Assembly: GCF_003334405.1 (NCBI RefSeq)
Contig: NZ_QOWM01000040.1
Reading direction: 5' to 3' (one strand)
DNA: 2,037 nucleotides
Source: Escherichia coli
GTDB lineage: Bacteria > Pseudomonadota > Gammaproteobacteria > Enterobacterales > Enterobacteriaceae
The position numbers were made by a program, and so were the translations under genes. The notes beneath the pieces are model-generated. The model did not search any database, was not told the DNA's origin, and was given only the letters and a program-made list of their open reading frames with translations. Positions 1,306 through 2,037 of this stretch are shown in pieces (position 1 is the first letter of the stretch; each line of letters opens with the position of its first letter).

Positions 1306-1652
1306 ATGTCAAATACATACCAGAAAAGAAAGGCAAGTAAAGAGTATGGTTTATATAATAAATGTAAGAAACTAAATGATGATGAATTATTTCGCTTACT
1401 TGATGATCGCAATTCCTTGAAAAGGATTTCATCTGCCAGAGTATTACAGTTAAGAGGGGGGCAAGACGCTGTTAGATTGGCAATTGAATTCTGCACTGAC
1501 AAAAATTATATCCGTAGAGATATCGGAGCATTTATACTCGGGCAAATATAAATTTGCAAAAAATGCGAAGATAATGTTTTTAATATTTTGAACAATATGG
1601 CATTGAATGATAAGAGTGCTTGCGTTCGAGCTACGGCAATCGAGTCAACGGC
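1306..1652 (+). pseudogene. Orphan HEAT-repeat immunity gene remnant (YibA-like), interrupted by an in-frame TAA at 1549-1551 and 3'-truncated by the H-repeat insertion
   Basis: Translation from 1306 is MSNTYQKRKASKEYGLYNKCKKLNDDELFRLLDDRNSLKRISSARVLQLRGGQDAVRLAIEFCTDKNYIRRDIGAFILGQI, then a stop, then the same frame continues ICKKCEDNVFNILNNMALNDKSACVRATAIESTA... The second half contains a canonical HEAT/PBS-lyase repeat signature (D-x-x-x-C-V-R-A-T-A-I-E). The N-terminus matches what I recall of E. coli YibA, the HEAT-repeat protein encoded just downstream of rhsA. About 115 codons are present, against roughly 280 for a full-length YibA-type protein. The frame runs on into non-homologous sequence until TAA 1687-1689. 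Confidence 0.7.
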
Positions 1653-1770
1653 CAGGGAAAGATCATCAAAAGTTCACTTTTTGCACTAAATAATTCGCAT
1701 TTTATGTTTAAAAATTGAGATATTCCTTATTACCTGAAGCTGTTTTTTATTGCTTATACATGATCAAATA

Positions 1771-1790
1771 CTCCTTACCTAATTAAGGAG
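1771..1790 (+). promoter_or_regulatory. Perfect 7-bp inverted repeat (CTCCTTA-cctaat-TAAGGAG) able to form an RNA hairpin sequestering the transposase Shine-Dalgarno sequence
   Basis: Seen directly: 1771-1777 ctcctta is the exact reverse complement of 1784-1790 taaggag, with a 6-nt loop. The 3' arm contains the SD AAGGAG (1785-1790), which lies 6 nt upstream of ATG 1797. Confidence 0.5.
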
Positions 1791-1796
1791 AACAAA

Positions 1797-2037
1797 ATGG
1801 AACTTAAAAAATTGATGGAACATATTTCTATTATCCCCGATTACAGACAAACCTGGAAAGTGGAACATAAATTATCGGATATTCTACTGTTGACTATTTG
1901 TGCCGTTATTTCTGGTGCAGAAGGTTGGGAAGATATAGAGGATTTTGGGGAAACACATCTCGATTTTTTGAAGCAATATGGTGATTTTGAAAATGGTATT
2001 CCTGTTCACGATACCATTGCCAGAGTTGTATCCTGTA
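1797..2037 (+). CDS. yhhI: ISAs1-family (H-repeat-associated) transposase, N-terminal 80 codons (3'-partial, runs off the window)
   Basis: AAGGAG SD at 1785-1790, ATG at 1797, and an open frame to the window end. The translation is [80 protein letters not shown], the conserved N-terminal region of H-repeat-associated proteins (YhhI, YdcC and YbfD in E. coli). The symbol is chosen from the RhsB-like context, since the paralogues are near-identical at this end. Confidence 0.85.

Follow-up and report, generated by a model that had tools for sequence, protein, structure and literature searches.

Why does the rhsB locus of Escherichia coli carry, behind the immunity gene of its own toxin tip, the beginning of yibA, a gene that in K-12 follows rhsA? 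We examined this question in a window of 2,037 nt (the whole stretch of DNA that was analysed; positions are those of the window, and all features lie on its plus strand) and in complete E. coli genomes. The explanation that very probably holds as a whole is that a toxin tip was replaced and its immunity gene spared, that this gene was then truncated and acquired a nonsense codon, and that the stump left behind is without function and still recombines.

The locus and its yibA fragment

The window was 100% identical to E. coli chromosomes, where it lies between nikR and yhhJ; two SNPs separated it from K-12 MG1655, one at 461 and one at 1039, and neither falls inside the yibA fragment. It contains, in this order, the 3' end of rhsB, yhhH, the yibA fragment and yhhI, the transposase gene of ISEc1 (H-repeat). 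The annotated rhsB part (1-846) begins with the conserved end of the Rhs core, which holds the DPxGL motif and has its limit at about 300-324, and continues with CT-B, the AT-rich RhsB-specific C-terminal toxin tip. Homology of the core to rhsA and to the yibJ orphan stops at 299-324, and the GC content falls abruptly from 59% in the core end to 37.5% beyond. The cognate gene that follows the RhsB tip, yhhH (818-1201; PF15631, NTF2-fold immunity family), shares 29 nt with the end of rhsB, and a paralogous copy is named NTF2-fold immunity protein; none of the NCBIfam profiles matched the RhsB tip or YhhH. The 3' tail of the CT-B/yhhH cassette (1202-1253) has no homology to K-12 rhsA/yibA and was contiguous with yhhH in all arrangements found, including the "92%-diverged" copy of Z0117. 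We also noticed that toxin tip, yhhH, yibA fragment and IS all have a GC content of 33-38%, which agrees with tips that are AT-rich and foreign.

Homology to the rhsA 3' end and yibA of K-12 starts at 1254, upstream of the yibA start codon, and the DNA identity over 1254-1655 was 97.0% (391/403). The first stretch (1254-1285) corresponds to the last 32 nt of rhsA (...SRQSNDRKR*), aligned to positions 6286-6317 of the locus sequence L003, in which rhsA ends at 6317; in the window it is in frame with no ORF. It is followed by the rhsA-yibA intergenic spacer (1286-1305) with the Shine-Dalgarno (SD) sequence GGAGG (1293-1297), 8 nt upstream of the ATG at 1306, and by the 5' 347 nt of yibA (1306-1652; codons 1-115 plus 2 nt), which were identified by alignment, NCBIfam and Pfam. 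The portion kept takes in codons 1-116 of 280, the first 40% of the gene. Frame 1 of 1306-1689 reads MSNTYQ...ILGQI*ICKKCEDN...ESTARERSSKVHFLH*, the second stop being at 1687-1689. When the first stop was read as K, residues 1-116 matched YibA (PDB 1OYZ, 280 aa) with E = 9.7e-71 in phmmer, and it is clear that this match is not due to chance. In addition, Pfam HEAT_2 matched residues 28-114 of the fragment (E = 0.001). The initial annotation, made from the sequence alone, had described a YibA-like HEAT-repeat gene with its own strong SD, and this is borne out by both the GGAGG and the YibA match; a lack of similarity to YibA, which it had named as evidence to the contrary, was not found, the similarity being overwhelming.

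Over the yibA part, the fragment showed eight differences from the K-12 gene, of which three were non-synonymous (Q19K, H35R and S64T over residues 1-116), four synonymous and one nonsense, a premature TAA (1549-1551) in place of AAA for Lys82. This codon was AAA in 7/7 full-length yibA copies examined of the arrangement classes described below, and TAA was seen solely in the copy of Z1323CEC0013. The TAA is thus a single A-to-T change at 1549, and the nucleotide alignment confirmed the earlier claim that one base of a sense codon had been substituted. Against NCBIfam NF007244 (PRK09687 'putative lyase', the YibA family; a profile of 285 positions with a curated cut-off of 275 bits), the 81-aa product scored 108.9 bits over profile positions 1-81, below the cut-off, in agreement with the earlier view that any such product would be a truncated HEAT fragment. 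By homology the fragment belongs with YibA; by length it does not, and even without the stop it would have 116 of the 280 residues. Nor does it have the intact ORF of an orphan immunity gene, being interrupted by TAA at codon 82 and truncated at codon 116.

The yibA fragment is yrhC, an E. coli pseudogene known beforehand, and it is not new. In MG1655 yrhC (b4552) spans 3623887-3624132, which equals window positions 1306-1551, and PGAP places a pseudogene at 1306-1656 with the remark 'HEAT repeat domain-containing protein; internal stop; missing C-terminus' (also flagged 'incomplete'); the feature was therefore already catalogued. The PGAP label of the fragment in RefSeq genomes was either 'HEAT repeat domain-containing protein' or 'lyase'; the latter derives from the family name 'putative lyase' (NF007244), and there is no evidence of enzyme activity. 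A literature search for 'yrhC' returned solely a passing mention of it as a pseudogene. A yrhC plasmid clone was obtained once, as 1/30, when a ppGpp-null strain was put under selection for higher persistence, and the authors, who called yrhC a pseudogene, took the clone no further (PMC4738310). We also observed that T1288 and A1291 of the window give an in-frame ATG at 1291, where yibA of K-12 has GTG, and gene callers therefore often give 86 aa (MEVPAMSN...) instead of 81 aa. In some strains (EH08-18-36, Ec1115), yibA/yrhC was split by an additional IS1, which was seen as a two-piece match with an IS1 transposase annotated between the pieces.

Tip replacement and the junction with ISEc1

According to the passage in Poole et al. 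(2011, PMC3150448) that cites Vlazny and Hill, expression of yibA neutralises the growth block caused by the C-terminus of RhsA, and a general model of Rhs tip displacement was given by Jackson et al. (2009, PMC2935791). At the window locus the order is rhsB-CT, yhhH and the fragment, while the homologue yibA follows rhsA in K-12 and 0H25, which is the order of an orphan immunity gene. Since the homology starts at 1254 and takes in 32 nt of rhsA, the spacer and yibA, the old toxin tip was almost wholly replaced and the immunity gene was spared. A CT-B/yhhH cassette took the place of nearly all of the RhsA toxin tip; just 3' of the new immunity gene there remained 32 nt from the end of rhsA, the spacer and a complete yibA. 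We therefore regard 1254-1652 as the stump of an older rhsA-type toxin/immunity layer in the rhsB locus, and the 32 nt of rhsA together with yibA behind yhhH support the earlier proposal of an rhsA-type immunity remnant that records a tip replacement in an RhsB element.

By spread sampling over 3,137 matching genomes, we distinguished three main classes of arrangement. The K-12-like class (about 1,800 genomes) has rhsA with its own tip and intact yibA, and rhsB with the truncated fragment. In the JL05-like class (about 950 genomes, a figure obtained by subtracting about 240 genomes with the Z0117 type at rhsB from roughly 1,185 in which yhhH stands beside full-length yibA), B tip, yhhH and the junction 1253|1254 are found at the rhsA locus (yibF...yibH) together with a full-length yibA, which was intact in the O104:H4 strain C227-11 and frameshifted at nt 696 in JL05, A35 and RM10042. 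The Z0117EC0051-like class (about 240 genomes) has a stratified array at the rhsB locus itself. The array of Z0117EC0051 and MLI106K3 (L010 1-10514 and L018, respectively) starts with a newer main tip, immunity genes (NTF2-fold, DUF6258) and an IS3, continues with a degraded CT-B, a frameshifted yhhH-like gene, the 1253|1254 junction and an intact 843-nt yibA, and ends with a yibJ-like orphan tip, a sel1-type gene, an IS630 scrap and an internally deleted ISAs1 beside yhhJ. In both genomes yibA occurs once, at the rhsB locus and not at rhsA, so that an intact copy at this position, for which a survey of other strains had been suggested, does exist. The junction 1253|1254 was identical in every arrangement seen, and it was joined to full-length yibA at the rhsA locus in JL05, A35, C227-11 and RM10042 and at the rhsB locus in Z0117EC0051 and MLI106K3.

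The 3' part of yibA is missing from the window, as had been stated for the sequence from about 1653 on, where the H-repeat begins. We mapped the end of the homology to 1652; at 1653 begins the terminal CAGGG of ISEc1 (H-repeat B, ISAs1 family), whose left end fills the rest of the window (1653-2037) with the left inverted repeat CAGGGAAAGATCA and the start of the yhhI ORF at 1797. The whole element spans 1,291 bp (L002 6235-7525), its right inverted repeat CAGGGCAAGATTA matches the left one at 11/13 positions, and yhhI is annotated as an ISAs1-like ISEc1 transposase. The junction of yibA with ISEc1 was present in 1,811-1,816 of 5,426 complete genomes.

One way to such a junction would be a simple transposition of ISEc1 into codon 116 of an intact yibA whose distal part was lost later or displaced, and the initial annotation had likewise let the recombination be followed by an IS insertion. 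That the break falls exactly on the IS terminus CAGGG at 1653 agrees with this, and yet we consider a simple insertion very improbable. No target duplication was found around ISEc1 of K-12 (left flank ...TCAACGGC, right flank AATACAGG), in keeping with a secondary junction, and a search downstream of yhhI and beyond the IS in K-12 found no distal part of yibA. Moreover, in Z0117EC0051 and MLI106K3 yibA is intact at the rhsB locus, with 2,181 bp between yibA nt 347 and the ISAs1 end in Z0117; there, the right junction of the IS is the same as in K-12 to the base (CCCTG|AATAC...), whereas its left end abuts unrelated DNA. The Z0117 IS was 93-94% identical to the K-12 copy and thus less alike than the flanking yhhJ region (97%), so the orthology of both insertions rests on the identical right junction. 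The flanks of the Z0117 ISAs1, AATAAAGGG on the left (L010 9975-9983) and AATACCGGA on the right (10560-10568), may be a decayed target duplication or a chance resemblance; with a match of 6/9 they were too weak to be used as a target duplication.

In an IS-adjacent deletion, one end of the IS stays fixed, the DNA beside the other end is lost, and no duplication is found across the new junction. Such a deletion is the simplest account; it fits better with an intact yibA and the same right junction in Z0117, a missing duplication and a missing distal yibA, and it is more likely than a fresh insertion of ISEc1, judging from present-day arrays, among which no intermediate was seen. In the K-12-like lineage, a leftward deletion from the left end of an ISEc1 already at the yhhJ edge would have removed about 2.2 kb, comprising the last 496 nt of yibA, the yibJ-like orphan tip, the sel1-type immunity gene and the IS630 scrap. 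Homologous or illegitimate recombination would be an alternative route to the same deletion. Transposition of ISEc1/H-repeats has not been observed experimentally (PMC3032704).

The stop codon, the 81-aa product and exchange with intact yibA

Not all genomes with the yibA-ISEc1 junction carry the stop codon. About 1,796 of them have the window-type allele and about 15 have alleles closer to yibA, which were found with a 457-nt query carrying the yibA state at all eight sites. The alleles of 1919D3 and HS-02 were of the yibA type at all eight sites, with no stop; that of TW10573 differed from yibA at 1617 only, and that of AS19 at 1458 and 1617. In OSUCMP42NDM, MFDS1016424 and S6aCHROMc every other variant was present, but the codon was AAA instead of TAA. 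Similarly, the protein collection contained stop-free read-through products of 127 and 132 aa that end with ...ESTARERSSKVHFLH, within the IS. Since these stop-free alleles share the junction, the truncation came before the nonsense change, unless all of them are later conversions. The change of Lys82 to TAA was thus the later step, in an allele that is now found in nearly all junction genomes.

Judged by its sequence, the stump would have no immunity function, and its product, if any is made, would be 81 aa long and comprise about two HEAT hairpins of a 280-aa solenoid. A scan of the window for promoters and terminators gave nothing above the shuffled expectation, and no Rfam family matched. 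One may ask whether the short ORF, with 81 aa when read from 1306 and 86 aa when read from the ATG at 1291, instead encodes a small protein that is real and conserved, such as a mini-HEAT decoy or regulator. Its SD is strong, the ORF is found unchanged in about 1,800 complete genomes and in at least 1,000 contigs of the protein collection, and the one yrhC clone of the persistence selection would also agree with a function. We find this hardly credible, as the SD is simply inherited from yibA and the identity across genomes is that of recent common descent within E. coli. The end of the ORF is not conserved, since the stop-free alleles with the same junction read on into the IS, and these alleles speak equally against the conserved full-length small gene that the initial annotation had allowed for. 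The substitution pattern (three non-synonymous, four synonymous, one nonsense) and the score so far below the NCBIfam cut-off (108.9 against 275 bits) also argue against a small protein.

We then compared the stump with yibA at the rhsA locus using 11 diagnostic sites (1275, 1288, 1291, 1360, 1409, 1458, 1488, 1495, 1500, 1549 and 1617). Mosaic alleles were found with different breakpoints: NN5 switches type between 1458 and 1488, and TW10573 between 1549 and 1617. The full-length yibA of RM10042 (L020 5967-6808), which follows the B tip and yhhH in the rhsA locus, was of the window type from 1360 to 1500 and of the yibA type at 1549 and 1617; about 190 genomes have copies like it (at least 99% identity to the chimeric query). 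It shares a 1-nt deletion at nt 696 with JL05, whose yibA has none of the window-type bases. In Z1323CEC0013, whose rhsB locus is of the window type, the RhsA-type tip at the rhsA locus is followed by a full-length yibA of 843 nt (L019 5967-6809) that has all 11 window-type sites, TAA included; this looks like a conversion of the intact gene by the pseudogene. A recent crossover between 1291 and 1360 in JL05 had also been considered and was withdrawn; the copies of 1919D3 and Z0117 share the pattern, which may be ancestral. The mosaic alleles show that the stump has repeatedly exchanged sequence with the rhsA-locus yibA, and the 399-bp stump still recombines with this gene, about 143 kb away in K-12; the mosaics themselves are observed, and their direction we infer.

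Six of the eight 'decay' substitutions are also present in full-length (frameshifted) yibA alleles of about 190 genomes, so that they may represent an allelic yibA haplotype and not decay in the stump. The fragment would then have inherited its substitutions from a distinct full-length yibA allele, and only the TAA and the truncation would be lesions of a pseudogene. This reading would account for the window-type bases from 1360 to 1500 in those full-length copies at the rhsA locus, and also for the clustering of the divergence, since between the window and JL05 there were 8/347 differences in the fragment and 2/1305 upstream of it (Fisher p = 1e-4). We nevertheless regard it as rather unlikely. 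The full-length alleles examined were themselves frameshifted by the deletion at nt 696, and JL05 has the same frameshift without the variants, as would fit if a yrhC donor had supplied the variants along with the B tip; in addition, there are truncated alleles identical to yibA (1919D3, HS-02).

The stump is possibly a live recombination arm that, together with the conserved upstream core, brackets the CT-B/yhhH cassette, although we put this forward tentatively. The cassette would move to the rhsA locus by homologous recombination while the resident yibA is kept, and in the reverse direction the nonsense codon would be written into yibA, as in Z1323CEC0013. Just this combination of B cassette and yibA is seen at the rhsA locus of about 950 complete genomes, and the crossover points within the stump vary among them. 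If this is true, a dead immunity fragment shapes the toxin/immunity sets of E. coli strains. The description of the fragment as a small fossil is right in that it is a pseudogene remnant, but the mosaic alleles show exchange with the rhsA-locus yibA, and in this sense it is not inert.

Meaning and comparison with known systems

Taken alone, the fragment is of little weight, being a catalogued pseudogene of the best-annotated bacterial genome whose origin fits the published displacement of Rhs tips; such remnants are an ordinary outcome when Rhs tips turn over. A modest addition is the dated order of events, in which a tip replacement that spared the immunity gene was followed by an IS-associated truncation and then by the nonsense change. 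Another is that the mosaic alleles are direct evidence of a dead remnant of 0.4 kb exchanging sequence with an intact paralogue. This also calls for caution in the annotation of yibA alleles and in short-read variant calls in this repeated region.

Compared with yrhC (b4552) of MG1655, the window fragment is the same feature and nothing of substance differs; the annotated end of yrhC in K-12 is the TAA, whereas the PGAP pseudogene runs to 1656. The HEAT-repeat gene yibA (b3594; PDB 1OYZ) downstream of rhsA has the same SD and spacer as the fragment; the fragment differs from it in lacking residues 117-280, in its premature stop and in its place in the rhsB locus, behind yhhH and not behind an RhsA tip. 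The truncation resembles the IS-adjacent deletions of established IS biology in its fixed IS end and missing duplication, and here such a deletion is suggested by the comparison of arrays. Further parallels are the displaced or orphan Rhs-CT/RhsI and CdiA-CT/CdiI modules (PMC2935791, PMC3150448), in which an older immunity gene is likewise pushed behind a newer pair and in which AT-rich tips and an association with IS elements are found, as at the window locus. Classical displaced tips keep a piece of the core and the whole toxin tip, whereas the stump in the rhsB locus keeps 32 nt of the old toxin gene; what sets this case apart from them is that the toxin was replaced almost precisely while the immunity gene was left in place, to be truncated later.
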